Shown here one piece after another: positions 637-15,242 of a DNA stretch of 64,000 nt. The DNA comes from a phage. Within the stretch, counting starts at the first letter, position 1; each line of letters starts with the position of its first letter. The notes beneath the pieces were generated by a model. The model ran no database searches. It was given only the letters and a program-made list of their open reading frames with translations, and was not told where the DNA came from. The stretch lies in sequence record PZ166176.1; one strand, given 5' to 3'. Both the position numbers and the translations under genes were made by a program.

Positions 637-1165
637 TGATTACGTATTCTTCTTTTCACATAAAGATGTGTTTAGTAATTGGTATATTGCACCCTTTACA
701 GAAACCGAACCAGGTTACAATCAAACATTTAATTGTGTCGAACAATACATGATGTGGCGTAAAGCTTTGCTTTTTAATGACCACAACACTGCACAGGCTA
801 TTCTGACTCATAGTTTGATACGGAAAGATGAGAAGATCCAAGCTTATTACAAACGTATGGGTAGGGCAGTGTCGGATTTTGATAACAACGTATGGGAAGA
901 GAACCGTGAGCGTATTGTTATGCGAGGTTTATGCTTGAAATATGTACAGAATCCAGATTTGTATGCAGACTTACACCTTTACCAATACAAAACGTTTGTT
1001 GAAGCAAGCCCCTACGATAAGGTTTACGGAATTGGAATGGGGATGTATGAACCAGGGGTGCTAAACCCTGCCACCTGGAAAGGGCAGAATCTTTTAGGCA
1101 AATATCATAACAAACTGATCGAAATACTTTTCCCAGACAAAATACCGCAAAGACGATATTTGTGA
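623..1165 (+). CDS. NADAR-domain (YbiA-like) protein, putative ADP-ribose processing enzyme
   Basis: 180 aa; motifs FFFSHKDVFSNWY, CVEQYMMWRKALLF, MGRAVSDFDNNVWEENRERIVMRGL, LKYVQNPDL, VEASPYDKVYGIGMG align with NADAR/DUF1768 (E. coli YbiA) blocks. Confidence 0.7.
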   Translation: MRITDDYVFFFSHKDVFSNWYIAPFTETEPGYNQTFNCVEQYMMWRKALLFNDHNTAQAILTHSLIRKDEKIQAYYKRMGRAVSDFDNNVWEENRERIVMRGLCLKYVQNPDLYADLHLYQYKTFVEASPYDKVYGIGMGMYEPGVLNPATWKGQNLLGKYHNKLIEILFPDKIPQRRYL

Positions 1166-1221
1166 TATTTTAACTTTTTTCATTTTTAGAACAAAGGTGT
1201 CACTTTGTAGCACAGAAATAA

Positions 1222-1258
1222 GGCTCCTACAGCACCGTAGAGAGCCTGTTATTTTGTC
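1222..1258 (+). terminator. rho-independent terminator after the NADAR gene
   Basis: GGCTCCTACAG-cacc-GTAGAGAGCC hairpin followed by a T-rich tract. Confidence 0.55.
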
Positions 1259-1414
1259 TTATACAAACACTTATCTTTTTCAGTTTGCATCACTAGGATT
1301 CGATCTGGGTGGGTTCCTGAAGGTCTACCAATAAGATTAAAGGTTATATCAAATTCCCACTATCTTTTATCTCAAAAATCCCTCAAATTATTTAAACTTT
1401 TTAAGAATTTACAA

Positions 1415-1590
1415 AAGTGAAAGTTGAAAACCAAAATTTAAAGTTTAGGAAAATTATCTTAAAATGTTAGATACAAAACAAAACTCAAAAGTCAAGGAAA
1501 ATTTTAAAAATTTTGCGCGCCCACAGTATTTAAAGTTTTTTTGCTTTTACAAAAATGAAAGTACAAAAGCAAAATTTAAAGTTTACAAAA
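1415..1590. repeat. pair of ~40 bp direct repeats
   Basis: aaagtgaaagttgaaaaccaaaatttaaagtttaggaaaatt (1415-1456) and aaaatgaaagtacaaaagcaaaatttaaagtttacaaaaatt (1553-1594); a third partial copy near 1500. Confidence 0.6.
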
Positions 1591-1605
1591 ATTTATGCAG
1601 GTGAG

Positions 1606-1711
1606 AATGAGAAGAGTTCTCATGTGGAAATGCAAATGATAATGATTCGCATTTAGGTTTATAAATGAGATTGATTCTTATTTGATAAGGTAAATGATAA
1701 TCATTCTCATT
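1606..1711. promoter_or_regulatory. three palindromic operator-like sites resembling Fur boxes
   Basis: atgagaagagttctcat (1606-1623), aatgataatgattcgcatt (1635-1653), aatgataatcattctcatt (1693-1711); compare Fur consensus GATAATGATAATCATTATC. Confidence 0.45.
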
Positions 1712-1938
1712 TAGAGAATGACGCGCAGGGGTGGTGTTTGTCTCGCGCTCCCGTGTCCCCTCGCCATGTAATAAGAATAACAGATCCAGCCAGGAAAGCA
1801 AGCGATTATTTTATCTTTACATTTCTTTACAAATATATAGCGCCCAGCCTACCGGCGATCAACCTTCCAACCAGCGCCCTGGTATGTTAGCCCCGCCTTT
1901 ACGCCGTGGGGTGGCGCTTCCTCTTCTGTATGTAAAAC

Positions 1939-1967
1939 AGTATAAGCCCGATCCCTGGGCTTGTCAA
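1939..1967 (-). promoter_or_regulatory. consensus sigma70 promoter on minus strand (TTGACA-N17-TATACT)
   Basis: Reverse complement of 1939-1967 reads TTGACAagcccagggatcgggctTATACT; fires leftward into the GC-rich ORF-free segment. Confidence 0.55.
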
Positions 1968-1969
1968 GA

Positions 1970-2236
1970 TTATTTTTTGTTTTCTTGCCAGGATAGGACA
2001 CCTAACCAAAAATACATATCGCCCCGCGCCCCTGGTGGTATCTTGCTTTCCCCGCCGCCACTGCAAGCCCATAGATAACCATTTGCGAACGTATCAAAAT
2101 GATCTATCTCTTCCACCTTATGATCGCCCAGGTTGAGAACGGTTTCAACCTTTAAGCCCGTTGCGCTTGCTACCTGGTGCACCGTGCCGCCTTGCCAGCC
2201 CAATGAGTGCATAAGGTGTAATGTAGTAGTTGTCAT
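1970..2236 (-). CDS. hypothetical protein (88 aa), doubtful
   Basis: Only ORF in the GC-rich island with a plausible SD (gaaaggg, 8 nt upstream); no family recognised; may be spurious. Confidence 0.3.
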   Translation of the reverse strand: MTTTTLHLMHSLGWQGGTVHQVASATGLKVETVLNLGDHKVEEIDHFDTFANGYLWACSGGGESKIPPGARGDMYFWLGVLSWQENKK

Positions 2237-2345
2237 GGTATCGCCCTTTCTTTGTTGTGCGCCCTGGTTGGCGCGGTAGAAAGATGATAGCCTTTTCCTT
2301 TATATATAGCAAGCAAAAAGAAAATAAAAAAAGATTGAAAAAGTG

Positions 2346-2374
2346 GTTGACGTTCCTCACCTGGTAGCGTAGTA
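2346..2374 (+). promoter_or_regulatory. sigma70-like promoter (TTGACG-N17-TAGTAT)
   Basis: ttgacgttcctcacctggtagcgtagtat upstream of ORF 2511. Confidence 0.4.
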
Positions 2375-2510
2375 TTCATCTTGTCGAGGGGGGCGCGGCA
2401 CAACGACAATAAAAAACAGGAGGGCGCAATGTAGGACGGGCAAAGGTGAGGATCTCCATAATCCACCGTCAACCAACAAAAAACATCATTCATCACCTGG
2501 AGTTAAAATC

Positions 2511-2708
2511 ATGGCAACATTGCACATAGTAGCGAAAGCAGGACAAATCAGCGTCGTGGTAAACGGTTTTACTGAGTTCAGTCATCCCCAGGATGATCAT
2601 GAAACGGTTTTATCTTTCATTGATTCACTGTTAGAAATGGGAGTAATTACAGAAGACCAGCACGCTACAAAATGCAAACGCGTTAATCAGATTGCAGGAA
2701 TAGAATAA
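2511..2708 (+). CDS. hypothetical early protein (65 aa)
   Basis: ORF with GGAG upstream of ATG. Confidence 0.55.
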   Translation: MATLHIVAKAGQISVVVNGFTEFSHPQDDHETVLSFIDSLLEMGVITEDQHATKCKRVNQIAGIE

Positions 2709-2714
2709 AAAGTA

Positions 2715-2778
2715 TTGACAACAACCAACAACCTGATAAGATGTATCACATAGGGCGGCGGAATGGTCCACCGCTCAC
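2715..2778 (+). promoter_or_regulatory. PeSL-like cassette: promoter plus 5' stem-loop
   Basis: TTGACA 2715-2720, -10 TAAGAT, then tagggcggcggaatggtccaccgc hairpin, SD, ATG at 2800. Confidence 0.7.
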
Positions 2779-2799
2779 AACAGAAGAGAGATTATAATC

Positions 2800-3072
2800 A
2801 TGGCATCATATAGCGCAACAATGATCGTAGCTGGCACCACTGGTAAACCTATGAGCGGTGGCGGATCTTTCGCAAATATCAACATTGACGGGCGTTTATC
2901 CCTGGACGCAGCGATCACCGTGGCGCGGGAAACATTTAAGAAAGAATGTAAATTCAATAAACAAGATTATCTCGGTTTTGCTATTGAAAAAACCGCGCGT
3001 TTTGTTGATTATAAAAGCCCAAAAATGGTTGATACTACACTAAAAGCGCAAGATGTAGCGTTTTTGCTTTAA
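2800..3072 (+). CDS. hypothetical early protein (90 aa)
   Basis: First ORF after cassette; SD agagag. Confidence 0.65.
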   Translation: MASYSATMIVAGTTGKPMSGGGSFANINIDGRLSLDAAITVARETFKKECKFNKQDYLGFAIEKTARFVDYKSPKMVDTTLKAQDVAFLL

Positions 3073-3075
3073 GGC

Positions 3076-3131
3076 TTGACATTAACGAATAATTTGTTAA
3101 TATGTTACATAAAGCGGGAATAGTTCCCGCT
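3076..3131 (+). promoter_or_regulatory. PeSL-like cassette
   Basis: TTGACA 3076-3081, taatat -10, hairpin gcgggaatagttcccgc 3114-3130. Confidence 0.65.
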
Positions 3132-3148
3132 ATTTGTAAGGTGGTAGA

Positions 3149-3406
3149 ATGTTTTACATCAAATTAAAAGGTCACGTGATCGCGTTCAAAGATAACGCTT
3201 TTTACAGATTAGCAAAATATGCGTTAATACATCCCCACTATGTTTATATAAGGGGGCGTGATGAAATAAATATCTTTGATCAAACAACATGCGAAAACAT
3301 CGAGATCCGCAAGGTTGGCGTACGTGATTATCGTACATCTTTCTACCCTTGCAAGGATTCAGCAAGTCTTTTCAAAGTATGCCAATTGTTGAAAAAAGGT
3401 GGTTAA
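3149..3406 (+). CDS. hypothetical early protein (85 aa)
   Basis: ORF after cassette, SD aaggtgg. Confidence 0.6.
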   Translation: MFYIKLKGHVIAFKDNAFYRLAKYALIHPHYVYIRGRDEINIFDQTTCENIEIRKVGVRDYRTSFYPCKDSASLFKVCQLLKKGG

Positions 3407-3407
3407 T

Positions 3408-3965
3408 ATGGGCCGCGAATATGTGATCCAGTCTTGGGTAAAACATGAAGCAGATGATCCGCGCATCATTCCCGATCATCTTATCGATGAATCCACGGGA
3501 TATAGCGGTGAGCAAATAGGTAACAGGTTAGCACGTAGTAACGGCAACGTAAAAGCGCGTTATGTGCGCCCTGGCTGGCTGGCAAATGGTAACGCTGATT
3601 TATCCAGTGCGGAAGATGCGAGCGACGGCGCGAAAGATAATCCTTTGTACAAAATTGATCCGGCTTTTCGTGTCCTGGATGAATACCCCAACAAGATAGC
3701 GGCGCTCGATCAGGCCCTGGAAAGTAAGCGCATCACCTGGACCGCTTACAACATGGCAAAAAACGTACTTGATGGTAAATTGATTCAAGCCGAAAGAAAA
3801 TTAGCCAAAATTGCAGCCATAGCCCAGGAGGAAGACGAGGAGACAACGGAAGAGGAAGAGTACGAAGAGATCCCGCCGTTGTTGTGTGTTGATGCTTTTC
3901 CTGATTATCAGCCGACAGAGGAAGAAAAAAGGATCGCACTAGAAAACTTTGAAAATAGTCTTTGA
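3408..3965 (+). CDS. hypothetical early protein with acidic C-terminal region
   Basis: ATG at 3408 with SD aaggtgg; the track GTG start at 3399 overlaps the SD; Glu-rich tail EEDEETTEEEEYEE. Confidence 0.6.
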   Translation: MGREYVIQSWVKHEADDPRIIPDHLIDESTGYSGEQIGNRLARSNGNVKARYVRPGWLANGNADLSSAEDASDGAKDNPLYKIDPAFRVLDEYPNKIAALDQALESKRITWTAYNMAKNVLDGKLIQAERKLAKIAAIAQEEDEETTEEEEYEEIPPLLCVDAFPDYQPTEEEKRIALENFENSL

Positions 3966-4020
3966 CATATCGCCGCCACTGGCATAATATTTACCACGTA
4001 GGGCGGCAATGGTGCCGCTC
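3962..4020 (+). promoter_or_regulatory. PeSL-like cassette
   Basis: TTGACA 3962-3967, cataat -10, hairpin gggcggcaatggtgccgctc 4001-4020. Confidence 0.7.
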
Positions 4021-4047
4021 ATAGTGAAATTATGCAAGAGGTTTACA

Positions 4048-4143
4048 ATGATTAATAAAGAAAATAGCTTGACGGTTGGAACGATTAACGCTATCATTTT
4101 CGCCGTTCCATTTTGGGTTGTAGTAGCGGCTATTATTTTCTAA
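4048..4143 (+). CDS. 31-aa hydrophobic micro-protein (predicted single transmembrane helix)
   Basis: MINKENSLTVGTINAIIFAVPFWVVVAAIIF; SD caagagg 7 nt upstream; below the track length cut-off. Confidence 0.45.
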   Translation: MINKENSLTVGTINAIIFAVPFWVVVAAIIF

Positions 4144-4153
4144 AAAAATATTC

Positions 4154-4214
4154 TTGACAACGTTTTTTAATCTGATAAGATGTATCACATAGGGCGGCGG
4201 AATACTTCCCCGCC
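4154..4214 (+). promoter_or_regulatory. PeSL-like cassette
   Basis: TTGACA 4154-4159; same promoter sequence as the 2715 copy; hairpin gggcggcggaatacttccccgcc. Confidence 0.7.
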
Positions 4215-4235
4215 AAAACAAAAAAGGGTAACACA

Positions 4236-4598
4236 ATGAGCAAGCAAATCAATACTATCATGTTTAATCTGGTATCTTTCCGCGACGATATGAAAAATTT
4301 ACCACGTGAAACGGTTGATATTCATGTTTCAGCTTATCGCGCCCTTATTGATATGTTACCGCTAAAACGTGATCAACATGCCGCTAATATGATGCTTAAC
4401 GCTATGCTTAAAAAGATGATTCAAACGGATCTCACCCTGGCATATGAGTATCAAGGGTGCTTATATGCAACTTACAACAAGGCGGTACCTGGTCTGGGAA
4501 GTACCGAAGAATTGCACGGCTTAAACCTGGATCAAAACACTTGGGATAGTATGCGCCGCGTTATGGTATGGGCCGAAAGCGGTAAAATTTACGAATAA
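4236..4598 (+). CDS. hypothetical early protein (120 aa)
   Basis: ORF after cassette. Confidence 0.65.
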   Translation: MSKQINTIMFNLVSFRDDMKNLPRETVDIHVSAYRALIDMLPLKRDQHAANMMLNAMLKKMIQTDLTLAYEYQGCLYATYNKAVPGLGSTEELHGLNLDQNTWDSMRRVMVWAESGKIYE

Positions 4599-11621: not shown

Positions 11622-11756
11622 ATGAGAAAGGTAATCATCACAATGGGGATCGTAGTAGCAACGCTGGCGCTTATCCCTTTCATGGTTGAACATGTGCTGA
11701 TTAATGTTGTCCTGGTAGTCAGTGACCTATTGGAAACGGTTGGCAACTGGTTTTAA
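11622..11756 (+). CDS. 44-aa hydrophobic micro-protein
   Basis: MRKVIITMGIVVATLALIPFMVEHVLINVVLVVSDLLETVGNWF; followed by a terminator. Confidence 0.45.
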   Translation: MRKVIITMGIVVATLALIPFMVEHVLINVVLVVSDLLETVGNWF

Positions 11757-11765
11757 GATAAATAA

Positions 11766-11793
11766 ACAGGGCTTGTTTTTGTCCTGTTTTTTG
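11766..11793 (+). terminator. rho-independent terminator
   Basis: acagggcttgtttttgtcctgt plus tttttt. Confidence 0.7.
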
Positions 11794-11932
11794 TTATACT
11801 TATTGAACGGGCGGCACCTGGGAGCAGGGGGAAGATAATCACCGGACGACCCCGCTATATATTGATAGCTAACATCTATCAAACAACAAAACATCAAAGA
11901 GATAAACTATCAAATCTTTACAATCCTACCTA

Positions 11933-13249: not shown

Positions 13250-13264
13250 TTGACAACAAAACAA

Positions 13265-13291
13265 GGGGCGCACCAAGCGCCCTTTCTTTTT
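13265..13291 (+). terminator. rho-independent terminator (GGGCGCACCAAGCGCCC family)
   Basis: gggcgcaccaagcgccc plus tttcttttt. Confidence 0.7.
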
Positions 13292-13498
13292 GCCCGAACA
13301 ATGTTGATAGCTTTCGCCTATGAAAAACCGACACAGAACAAAATTGAATAAATCGCGGTATCGAGCTAATCAACCATTAAACGAATAACCATACCTCCCA
13401 GGGTAACAGGCTGTTAGAGAGCCATTTATAGCGGTTAAAATCGATCAACAACCAACAACAAACCATCAAAAACACCCTTTTACCTCCTTTCTAGTGCA

Positions 13499-13516
13499 AT
13501 GATAACCATTATCATC
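13499..13516. promoter_or_regulatory. Fur-box-like palindrome
   Basis: aatgataaccattatcat. Confidence 0.4.
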
Positions 13517-14056
13517 TATCCATGTTTATCTATGCAATATAAGTGCATAACTATAATGTTGATAATAGTTCGCAACAACTAACTAACCAACAACCTAAAA
13601 CAATAAGCAAACTAATCATAATCAAAGGAATAATAGCAAGATGATTGATAACGACAAACAATCAAACCATGATGAATACTAAGCAAGATAACGATAACAC
13701 GACAAAACAACCAACTAACGAACAATAACAAACGAAACCATTAAAATAATAACTATTGCCATAATAGTGACTGAATGAAATCATTACAAAACGAATCATT
13801 CCCAGGATCATCATTAGCACGCTATGCCGGACACATAGCGAGCTAATAATAAGCCAACTACACCCCAACAATCATAACCATCGGTGATGGTTATTTCTTG
13901 TTACTGCGTAGCTTGCAATGATTGCAAGCGTAATGACGCTTACACTCATTGCGCTGGCTTATTATTAGCATTATATGTAATTACCAAGATCATAACATTA
14001 GCGCAATAACAATAATCATTGTAATGGTTACAATATGAAATCATTAGCATGGCAAT

Positions 14057-14212
14057 AATTATTGGGGGCAATGGGAGGATGATTATCATCATTCCGATAC
14101 ATTGCACACTATGCACATAATAGAATAAAAGTCAATAATTTTGGGGGCGAATACTATCGCGTAGCGATATGTTGAGCACTAAGAAAAGAGATAAACCTTA
14201 ATCATGGGGGCG
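14057..14212. repeat. three direct repeats of a TGGGGGC core
   Basis: attattgggggcaatggg (14057), aattttgggggcgaatac (14135), aatcatgggggcgtaaat (14198); a second direct repeat ATGTTGAGCA at 14165 and 14248. Confidence 0.5.
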
Positions 14213-14330
14213 TAAATATCCGAGGATTGCCAACGGCGATCCGGTAGGATGTTGAGCATCTTCTCTTAAACGTAAATAAAATCAGAAAATTCTTGATTTA
14301 TTATGGTTTTTATGTTAATAAATGTTTAAA

Positions 14331-14349
14331 TAATAATCATTCTCATATG
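14331..14349. promoter_or_regulatory. Fur-box-like palindrome
   Basis: taataatcattctcatatg. Confidence 0.4.
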
Positions 14350-14420
14350 AATAATAGTCTGCTTGTCATGAGCGGGATTAATTGACATTGTTCCGTCATA
14401 TGATGAAGTTGCCAAGCCAT

Positions 14421-14451
14421 TGATAAATAAGTGTTTGTGTGATTTATAATC
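14421..14451 (+). promoter_or_regulatory. sigma70-like promoter (TTGATA-N18-TATAAT)
   Basis: ttgataaataagtgtttgtgtgatttataat; candidate promoter for the block starting at 14868. Confidence 0.4.
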
Positions 14452-14507
14452 AAGTGGCCCACCTTGTCGCTATGTTGGCATGAGCCTTGCATAAGTCATT
14501 GAATACG

Positions 14508-14526
14508 AATGATAATTATTCTCATT
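14508..14526. promoter_or_regulatory. Fur-box-like palindrome
   Basis: aatgataattattctcatt, about 55 nt downstream of the candidate promoter. Confidence 0.45.
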
Positions 14527-14867
14527 CGCATGATATTTGGGAATTGTCGCTGCGTGGACCTGACGGCCCGAAAATTCGCGTTAAGCACTTCTTACGTATG
14601 CGCCATGATTTTTGCCATATCATATTGATTCTATTAGATATTCTTGCCGTGATTGCCATGAAACAGGGTGTCCCGAAATAATCTCTCCCCGTAGATATTT
14701 TGGGTTACTTTTTATACAAGAGTGGGGTGTCAAAAATAATCGGTATATATGGGATAATTGATAGGGAATACCAATGATAAATGAATTGTAATTGTCGAGG
14801 ATTGATCGTAGGATGTTGGTGATTGATGATTGCCATGAAAGATGGCTAACGATGAGAGGAGATTATC

Positions 14868-15242
14868 ATGCAAGAGAGTAAAAATGTTCCGTTGAGTAGT
14901 GCAACATTGCTTCGCTTCTATAAAGCATGGATTGCTAACTACCCTGCAATGAATCGCACAACGAGTGGCTTATGTGGTTGTCTGGTAGATTATGTAGATG
15001 ATTTTGTTGGTGAGACAACTAGAGAAGAAGATAGAAGATGGCGGGATAGTTTGTTAGACCGTTTGAAATATGAAATGAGGAAACAATTTACATGTGCAGG
15101 GCTGGACTACAATCTTCCGTTCAATGCAGATTGCATGGATTACCTTTCAGAGTGTATAAACTTGGCGTGTCATACCAACACGTTACGTCTTCAATGGGTG
15201 AAAGATCGTATTGAAGATGCAAATAATGCTTGCATTGAATAA
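14868..15242 (+). CDS. member A of a five-copy paralogous early family (GLC...PF...WVK motif)
   Basis: 124 aa; FYKAWI...GLCGCL...LPFN...RLQWVKD; paralogs at 18770, 22108, 24953, 26258. Confidence 0.7.
   Translation: MQESKNVPLSSATLLRFYKAWIANYPAMNRTTSGLCGCLVDYVDDFVGETTREEDRRWRDSLLDRLKYEMRKQFTCAGLDYNLPFNADCMDYLSECINLACHTNTLRLQWVKDRIEDANNACIE

Follow-up and report, generated by a model that had tools for sequence, protein, structure and literature searches.

In a 64,000-nucleotide stretch of phage DNA (PZ166176.1; hereafter the window), minus-strand bases 1833-1931 appear to be the gene, or the 5' domain, of a new family of structured non-coding RNA, which we call RNA1. Comparison with related phages makes it very probable that RNA1 is a real, functional structured RNA. 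It lies in a GC-rich island, 1740-2500, which a first-pass annotation of this DNA had singled out as a candidate structured non-coding RNA downstream of a minus-strand promoter. That proposal is supported for about 1715-1967, where the promoter is kept in relatives, base pairs covary and no reading frame is conserved, but not for the rest of the flagged 750 bp, which consists of a gene for a protein of 88 amino acids (aa) and ordinary early promoters. The island itself is as GC-rich as had been claimed, with a GC content of 0.481 against a window mean of 0.388 (sd 0.024, 760-bp windows); just 0.06% of 760-bp windows reach such a value, and the maximum of the 64 kb falls here. The single transcript of about 190 nt that had been envisaged matches the GC-rich stretch, but this stretch holds two units with one promoter each, and the island as a whole is a composite in which a small gene and a divergent promoter region accompany two non-coding RNA units. 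Bases 1100-2800 are up to 99.1% identical to Phapecoctavirus genomes (phAPEC8 relatives, Stephanstirmvirinae), and the window is DNA of a phAPEC8-like coliphage (Phapecoctavirus).

Fold and covariation of RNA1

The covariance model of RNA1 was built here from 40 sequences; structure counts were made on 57 distinct sequences, and promoter conservation was scored on 41 sequences of the module. The model finds this element of about 100 nt as a single copy in the window (cmsearch, 99 bits, E 6.5e-29), and its span would run from about the predicted transcription start (A1933/A1931) to the AU-rich tract after the fold. Comparative structure delineates a folded core of about 60 nt within it (1853-1911, minus strand, as are all RNA1 coordinates). 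The core is made up of helix Pk (CCCC 1911-1908 with GGGG 1894-1891), a closing helix, or helix P1 (CGGCG 1906-1902 with CGCCG 1857-1853), helix P2 (CU 1890-1889 with AG 1865-1864) and hairpin P3 (1886-1880 with 1873-1868), in which a bulged A (A1883) is conserved.

Paired cells amount to 88.5% in this structure against 78.5% in shuffled controls, and the covariation score of 0.248, which none of 500 shuffles reaches, compares with 0.082 for shuffled partners; slid partners score at most 0.108. RNA1 thus has the compensatory changes beyond controls that mark a structured non-coding RNA, and they preserve its fold in both phage subfamilies. Nine pairs have changed on both sides, seven of the eight in hairpin P2/P3 and two in Pk. 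Examples from the hairpin are A-U in 36 sequences and G-C in 21, C-G in 44 and G-C in 13, and A-U in 20 and C-G in 16; Pk switches from CCCC/GGGG to CCAA/UUGG in FKP3, A5-4, pEp_SNUABM_01 and others, with CCAG/CUGG in sequence L009 and CUCC/GGGG, which contains a G.U pair, in L058. One Pk pair has gone from CG to AU in 15 sequences, and another exchanges AU and GC. Pk and the closing helix would be the crossing helices of an H-type pseudoknot, and they vary in different ways: Pk covaries, whereas the closing helix varies by wobble alone, its sole variants being C-to-U changes that give G.U or U.G. The complementary CGGCG and CGCCG runs that had been noticed in the single sequence are indeed a helix, paired in all 57 RNA1 sequences. 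RNAalifold independently picks this long-range pairing; the 5' CGCC could also pair with the loop, but in two sequences that pairing is broken. The closing helix and P2/P3 together contain nine G.U pairs and no A.C, which argues that the RNA sense is the minus strand of the window, in agreement with the direction of the promoter described below. A further helix between the 5' flank and the 3' tail, considered as a terminator, was discarded, being confined to the Phapecoctavirus clade and not predicted on the alignment.

The junction nucleotides are nearly invariant, namely ACGGCG, the AAA of UAAAGGC, and AUCGCCGGUAG. Given that the phages sharing these junctions have 88-aa proteins that are only 38-55% identical, such constancy suggests that they are recognised by a conserved partner and do not simply base-pair with a target.

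Promoter P1 and non-coding character

Directly upstream of RNA1 lies a sigma-70-type promoter, promoter P1 (1939-1967, minus strand), which is the best promoter match in a scan of 1000-4500. The near-perfect TTGACA-N17-TATACT reported by the first-pass annotation holds up, agreeing with the consensus at 11 of 12 positions. All 41 module sequences keep a -35 hexamer of TTGACA, TTGACG or TTGCAA with a TAnnnT-type -10 at 17-18 bp, and such conserved hexamers, within the 16-18 bp spacing of sigma-70 promoters, mark P1 as a putative member of that class with a predicted start site. The spacer itself contains a GC hairpin (1944-1962), which a scan matched as terminator-like (AAGCCCAGGGATCGGGCTT with ATACTGTTTT) and which looks like an intrinsic terminator of the upstream 88-aa gene embedded in the promoter. 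The sequence of the spacer hairpin varies between genera but the hairpin persists, and its loop, read on the minus strand, is often GCAA or GAAA.

RNA1 is non-coding. Its length ranges from 94 to 106 nt and takes all residues modulo 3, and no single frame stays open in more than 30 of the 57 sequences. A coding reading was also considered for the 115-aa plus-strand open reading frame (ORF) phAPEC8_00257 and other ORFs across the stretch and was rejected, as these belong to no PHROG or Pfam family and are not conserved.

Known RNA families do not account for RNA1 either. The search for an Rfam family proposed at the outset came back empty: a scan of 1100-3200 with Rfam 15 gave nothing overlapping 1740-1967, and nothing appeared in 1700-1975 with lax filters at E<=10. 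ARAGORN finds no tRNA or tmRNA gene in the whole window, consistent with the earlier failure to fit a cloverleaf, and we regard the D-arm resemblance of GGTAGCTCG as superficial and reject a tRNA or tRNA remnant. A CsrA sponge, an anti-Shine-Dalgarno element and a seed-pairing RNA were likewise set aside, since the GGA and purine-rich motifs of the 5' leader are not conserved in types B and B'. HDV-like ribozymes, which comprise P1, P1.1, P2, P3/L3, P4 and a catalytic C in J4/2, share with RNA1 the strand order A-B-A'-hairpin-B', a nested pseudoknot with a variable distal hairpin. However, their active-site P3/L3 hairpin and the catalytic C in the last junction (J4/2) have no counterpart in RNA1, P3/L3 being replaced by seven nucleotides (UAAAGGC), and no Rfam ribozyme model matches, so this assignment was rejected.

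RNA1 is closer in setting to the structured early RNAs of other phages, such as HK022 put and the stable RNA species of T4, with which it has in common a host-type early promoter, the lack of an ORF and a fold at the start of the transcript. The put RNAs of HK022 are processive antiterminators made of two simple stem-loops; RNA1 differs from them in its pseudoknot and closing helix, and it resembles no curated family. The phage phiTE carries, besides RNA1, a tandem-repeat non-coding RNA known as pseudo-ToxI, an indication that this lineage uses RNAs against host systems (PMC3475682). In phiTE, however, RNA1 lies at 39.6 kb as a single copy free of tandem repeats and pseudo-ToxI occupies another locus with another architecture, so we see no link between them. 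An RNA of the ToxI or pseudo-ToxI type would in any case need tandem repeats of about 34-45 nt, and Tandem Repeats Finder (TRF) detects none in RNA1. Our literature search found no paper on RNA, origin or transcript maps for the region, and RNA1 appears to represent a previously undescribed structured RNA family within a conserved non-coding module.

Distribution of RNA1

The RNA1 model gives 63 matches in related phages and metagenome contigs, with one or two copies per related phage; the metagenome contigs hold 22 true copies, and several of these contigs are 145-152 kb long. With 1700-2500 as the query, a sensitive DNA search returned 236 phage records. Beyond the closest genera the match narrows to query positions 1-235, chiefly 115-237 (window 1814-1936), at 70-85% identity, in Salmonella PVP-SE1, Cronobacter CR3, Proteus Mydo, Klebsiella BIS47, Pectobacterium phiTE and phages of Erwinia and Serratia. 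Together with Escherichia, these are the host genera of the RNA1 phages, which belong to the Vequintavirinae and Stephanstirmvirinae and in which the stretch is mostly unannotated. The conservation of a gene-free segment across two subfamilies argues for a functional non-coding element.

An origin in the host, which had been raised as horizontal transfer, found no support. The RNA1 stretch has no match in 5,426 complete E. coli genomes, and a motif scan of 185,579 species genomes (one per bacterial or archaeal species, GTDB) returned three stretches. Just one is a true RNA1, on a 4-kb contig of a metagenome-assembled genome, and as it is nearly identical to the RNA1 of the window this contig is probably phage DNA. 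The other two lie in unrelated bacterial genomes, one being a weak, pattern-forced match and the other having no match to the model. We therefore rejected a host origin, and RNA1 appears to be specific to a large lineage of myoviruses of 145-152 kb that infect enteric bacteria.

Duplicate copies and an endonuclease gene

Three phages, cardinal, Ro1 and P7_Pc, have two copies of RNA1, of subtypes A and B, each served by a separate promoter. In cardinal and Ro1 a gene for a 197-aa HNH endonuclease (phrog_953, E 2e-81; minus strand, L193 1130-1723 and L173 6420-7013, respectively) sits directly after the GATCGCTGGTAC of the type-A copy, and in P7_Pc a remnant consisting of its 3' end is left (L191 1262-1330, minus strand). 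The point of insertion is exactly past the 3' strand of the closing helix, at the invariant GATCGCCGGTAG, and a complete type-B unit follows. The type-A copy of cardinal and Ro1 is kept through the 3' strand of the closing helix and then diverges, which matches the predicted domain boundary. The endonuclease ORF looks expressed in both phages and has a good ribosome-binding site.

This phage group is rich in free-standing HNH genes (PMC7344957). The pattern in cardinal, Ro1 and P7_Pc probably reflects homing that targets the invariant 3' element of RNA1 and brings along a divergent and probably resistant copy. Homing of this kind would imply that RNA1 is strongly constrained and that its functional 3' boundary is the closing helix, and it would be an uncommon case of homing at the gene of a non-coding RNA. 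The phages FKP3 and KP13-26 share the same promoter P1 but have different RNA1 subtypes, which suggests cassette exchange. Taken together, the RNA1 domain seems to behave as an autonomous cassette.

The module downstream of RNA1

On the minus strand every relative keeps the same order, P1, RNA1, TTTGTAAAGAAnnGTAAAGA, P2, RNA2, Fur-box-like palindromes and AT-rich repeats. RNA1 is followed by an AU-rich linker (TTTGTAAAGAAATGTAAAGA, 1814-1833, minus strand) with a direct repeat of GTAAAGA (x2), which is conserved in nearly all genera and may serve P2 as an UP-element-like tract or mark a site of processing. Promoter P2 (1774-1801, minus strand; TTGCTT-16-TATTCT) is a second sigma-70-type promoter, and every one of the 41 sequences has its TTGnnn -35 with a TATnnT-type -10 spaced at 16-18 bp; both promoters thus keep their hexamers and spacing throughout the module sequences, although the spacers differ. 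The second RNA unit, RNA2, is a promoter-proximal hairpin of about 50 nt (1718-1767, minus strand), in which AUGGCG (1767-1762) pairs with CGUCAU (1723-1718) around the loop GAGACAAACACC. RNAalifold predicts this outer stem, which shows G-U/G-C/A-U exchanges; it has modest support, and the case for RNA2 is weaker than that for RNA1.

RNA2 may be compared with a recurrent early cassette of this phage. The motif AYRTAGGGCG occurs in 10 copies, all on the plus strand between 2748 and 11976, against 0.23 expected, each directly after a sigma-70-like promoter, and it appears to mark a cassette of early promoter and 5' stem-loop that starts most early transcripts. P2/RNA2 resembles these cassettes in starting with ACATGGCG (ACATAGCGGGG in CR3 and phiTE) and in its 5'-end hairpin, but differs in running in the opposite direction, in having no gene after it and in its own conserved loop. 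A second promoter-plus-hairpin unit like P2/RNA2 is present on the plus strand at 11753-11858 (nhmmer E 7e-5), the next 150 nt or so being free of ORFs, and in related phages (L083, L039, L062) a second such copy lies 7 kb from the first in inverted orientation.

Directly downstream of RNA2 are four Fur-box-like palindromes AATGAGAATNATTCTCATT in a 29-bp phase (1606-1711), next to which the GC-rich stretch ends, as the first-pass annotation had observed. The palindrome has six matches in the window against 0.17 expected, and TRF reports a period-29 array at 1634-1715; the palindromes are conserved in all genera examined. They agree with the Fur 7-1-7 motif TGATAATNATTATCA at 12-13 of 14 positions, those at 1637 and 1695 having one or two mismatches, and matches to the motif with at most three mismatches number 34 in the window against 9.4 expected. 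They are thus putative Fur sites by motif and context, and could serve host Fur, as a roadblock or by titrating it, or else a phage protein. Further palindromes lie at 13500-13514, 14329-14347 and 14508-14526, in a second non-coding region 12 kb away. This region is a repeat-rich stretch of 1.6 kb (13250-14870) without convincing ORFs. It contains two units of the form TGGGGGCG...ATGTTGAGCA (14143-14185 and 14206-14262), and the string CCAACGGCGATCCGGTAGG (14230-14248) recalls conserved elements of RNA1, although the RNA1 model gives it no score.

GC content is 0.23-0.28 across 1301-1700, and the segment 1384-1593, which contains a 72-nt direct repeat (1384-1455 and 1522-1593) and a 29-nt repeat in three copies, appears origin-like. 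In phiTE, iteron-like GGGTCTCGATC repeats occupy the corresponding position (L020 1190-1340). Downstream of RNA2 the window has no gene on the minus strand. At about 1221-1247 there is a long hairpin (AGGCTCCTACAGCACCGTAGAGAGCCT) with T-runs on both strands, annotated as a terminator in phAPEC8, which probably acts in both directions and would end a leftward non-coding unit.

With P1 and P2 directed into an AT-rich repeat segment, the sequence features have the layout of a transcription-activated origin. Known examples are the primary origin of T7, where promoters 1.1A and 1.1B adjoin an AT-rich segment, and oriF and oriG of T4, which combine a promoter with an unwinding element. The likeness lies in tandem promoters facing an AT-rich, repeat-bearing, gene-free segment, and it is one of sequence layout alone; the promoters here would be used by host polymerase, and between them and the AT-rich segment come a structured RNA and a palindrome array. 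Within the window GC skew tracks gene orientation only and was discarded as an origin marker, being dominated by that orientation. The skew analysis of rV5 likewise only tracked transcription (PMC3606486). A physical genome end was also considered and rejected, as the 'attL' with which record PQ002170 begins seems to reflect overlap in the assembly rather than termini.

Possible functions of RNA1

The explanation that we favour, though tentatively and with real doubt about the whole of it, mechanism included, is that RNA1 is a trans-acting, stable early RNA that binds a partner. Host RNA polymerase would transcribe it in the first minutes of infection. The terminator-like hairpin inside P1 would stop transcripts from upstream and so give RNA1 a defined 5' end, and cleavage in the AU-rich tract that follows may release a stable small-RNA core. 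Its invariant junction nucleotides might then bind a protein or enzyme complex conserved either throughout Enterobacterales or among these phages. The presence of P2 just downstream means that RNA1 is not needed merely to deliver transcription beyond.

Several observations weigh against this proposal. The closing helix is so nearly invariant that it is backed by conservation and wobble, with no double compensatory change, and the single-sequence folding energy of RNA1 is unremarkable (z = -1.5); the case for RNA1 appears to rest on genome comparison and not on thermodynamics. We have identified no partner, and our literature search turned up neither RNA-seq nor a Northern blot for this group of phages. 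Neither a scan nor the alignment shows a conserved intrinsic terminator after RNA1, so that a discrete small RNA would need processing, a step that we infer here. In cardinal and Ro1, RNA1 forms the 5' leader of the HNH endonuclease mRNA. That RNA1 is always linked to P2, the palindromes and the AT-rich repeats, and always in the same orientation, fits a role in cis too.

Such a role is the main rival, although we think it rather unlikely. RNA1 and RNA2 would belong in cis to an origin-like or regulatory hub, in which the tandem early promoters transcribe leftward through the four palindromes into a repeat region of 23-27% GC and thereby open or prime an origin; the palindromes, bound by host Fur or a phage protein, would gate that transcription. 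The order of the module from P1 to the AT-rich repeats, conserved in all genera, speaks for this, as do the 72-nt and 29-nt repeats with the phiTE iterons at the same place, the lack of a minus-strand gene downstream, the terminator annotated in phAPEC8 that bounds the unit, and the fact that the group has no known origin, the rV5 skew having followed transcription. Against it, GC skew in the window follows nothing but gene orientation, no initiator gene was identified, and palindromes of the same kind occur 12 kb away (13500, 14329 and 14508). Moreover, simple transcriptional activation needs no tightly folded RNA with invariant junctions, and P2 makes RNA1 dispensable for reaching the region. 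A more elaborate idea, which we consider improbable, is that RNA1 is a new functional fold class, a ligand- or protein-sensing switch or a small ribozyme, that gates origin firing: the CGGCG loop would choose between the 5' CGCC and the 3' CGCCG and so decide on leftward transcription through Fur-gated palindromes. If this were true, host iron status or another host signal would be tied to the start of phage DNA replication.

It is equally improbable that RNA1 is a cis leader, either a put-like processive antiterminator or a 5' stabiliser, which would enable leftward transcripts to read through hairpins, occupied palindromes and terminators or would raise downstream output. RNA1 always lies within about 15 nt of the transcript start at a strong early promoter, has no terminator after it and precedes the endonuclease ORF in cardinal and Ro1, all of which would suit a leader; however, nearly all the phages lack a downstream gene, most polymerases would enter the region unmodified from P2, which has no RNA1, and put RNAs are two simple stem-loops rather than a pseudoknot. 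We give still less credence to conservation at the level of DNA, as a protein-binding or single-stranded DNA element or a preserved homing target, with P1 and P2 as ordinary promoters. Whilst the endonuclease gene is inserted exactly at the invariant GATCGCCGGTAG, and the most conserved segments never vary and are hence mute on pairing, complementarity survives two-sided changes at seven pairs of the hairpin and two of the pseudoknot, the wobble bias is strand-specific, P1 is conserved directly upstream, and homing sites are chosen because the sequence is already constrained. The alternative that the first-pass annotation had itself raised, a decayed host-derived protein gene with a promoter match by chance, is very improbable indeed: the 342-nt plus-strand coding sequence (CDS) of phAPEC8 and the small CDSs of ZCKP1 could be taken as traces of one, but these match no PHROG or Pfam family, no frame is conserved, there is no host homologue, and nucleotide conservation across subfamilies is greater than that of the neighbouring genes.

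As a strongly conserved structured RNA with a promoter of its own, predicted to be made when infection begins, RNA1 is a candidate for a function in host takeover, anti-defence or replication control, to which protein-based annotation is blind. Therapy and biocontrol research makes wide use of phAPEC8, phi92, PVP-SE1, CR3, phiTE and their more than 200 sequenced relatives, yet in their records the RNA1 locus is blank or filled with probably spurious ORFs. The module, with its promoters, palindromes and repeats, offers a way into the unannotated non-coding region that separates the late from the early gene block and may hold the replication origin of the group.

Neighbouring genes and annotation of the region

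The first-pass annotation saw no convincing ORF in the island, and on this point it has to be revised. The 88-aa ORF at 1970-2236 (minus strand) matches phrog_19316 over its full length (E 3e-59) and appears to be a real conserved gene, annotated in anhysbys, phi92 and others, with relatives of 38-99% identity at more than 20 loci in other genera (tblastn). The protein has an invariant W..GGT..Q.A..TG core and a C-terminal FW.GV motif, the invariant residues being W14, G16, G17, T18, Q21, A23, T26, G27, V30, W77, G79 and V80. Its conserved N-terminus (LMxALGWQGGTVHQVAxxTGLxV) reads as a possible helix-turn-helix. No relative was found in Pfam or the PDB, and the single-sequence AF2 model is uninformative (pLDDT 33).

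A promoter scan places the promoter of this gene at 2284-2312 (minus strand; TTGCTA-17-TATCAT); downstream of it the sequence reads as a leader hairpin (GCGCC..GGCGC) and then a ribosome-binding site. The same scan gives the first rightward early promoter at 2347-2375 (plus strand; TTGACG-17-TAGTAT), which would drive a 5' untranslated region and the gene at 2511-2708 (phrog_23268). Bases 2284-2375 thus appear to hold two divergent early promoters.

Public records treat the flagged stretch in different ways. That of phAPEC8 has the 342-nt plus-strand CDS (phAPEC8_00257, 115 aa, L001 3139-3480) over it, that of anhysbys has the minus-strand 88-aa ORF as the sole annotation, that of ZCKP1 has other small CDSs, and several further records have nothing. 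phAPEC8_00257 and two CDSs in record L003 (2286-2480 and 2547-2780) overlie RNA1/RNA2 or are out of register with the 88-aa gene, and having neither family support nor conservation all three are probably spurious. Elsewhere in the window, the plus-strand gene at 623-1165 encodes a NADAR-domain protein (Pfam E 8e-36), and the label 'GTP cyclohydrolase II' that several public records give it is probably an annotation carry-over.

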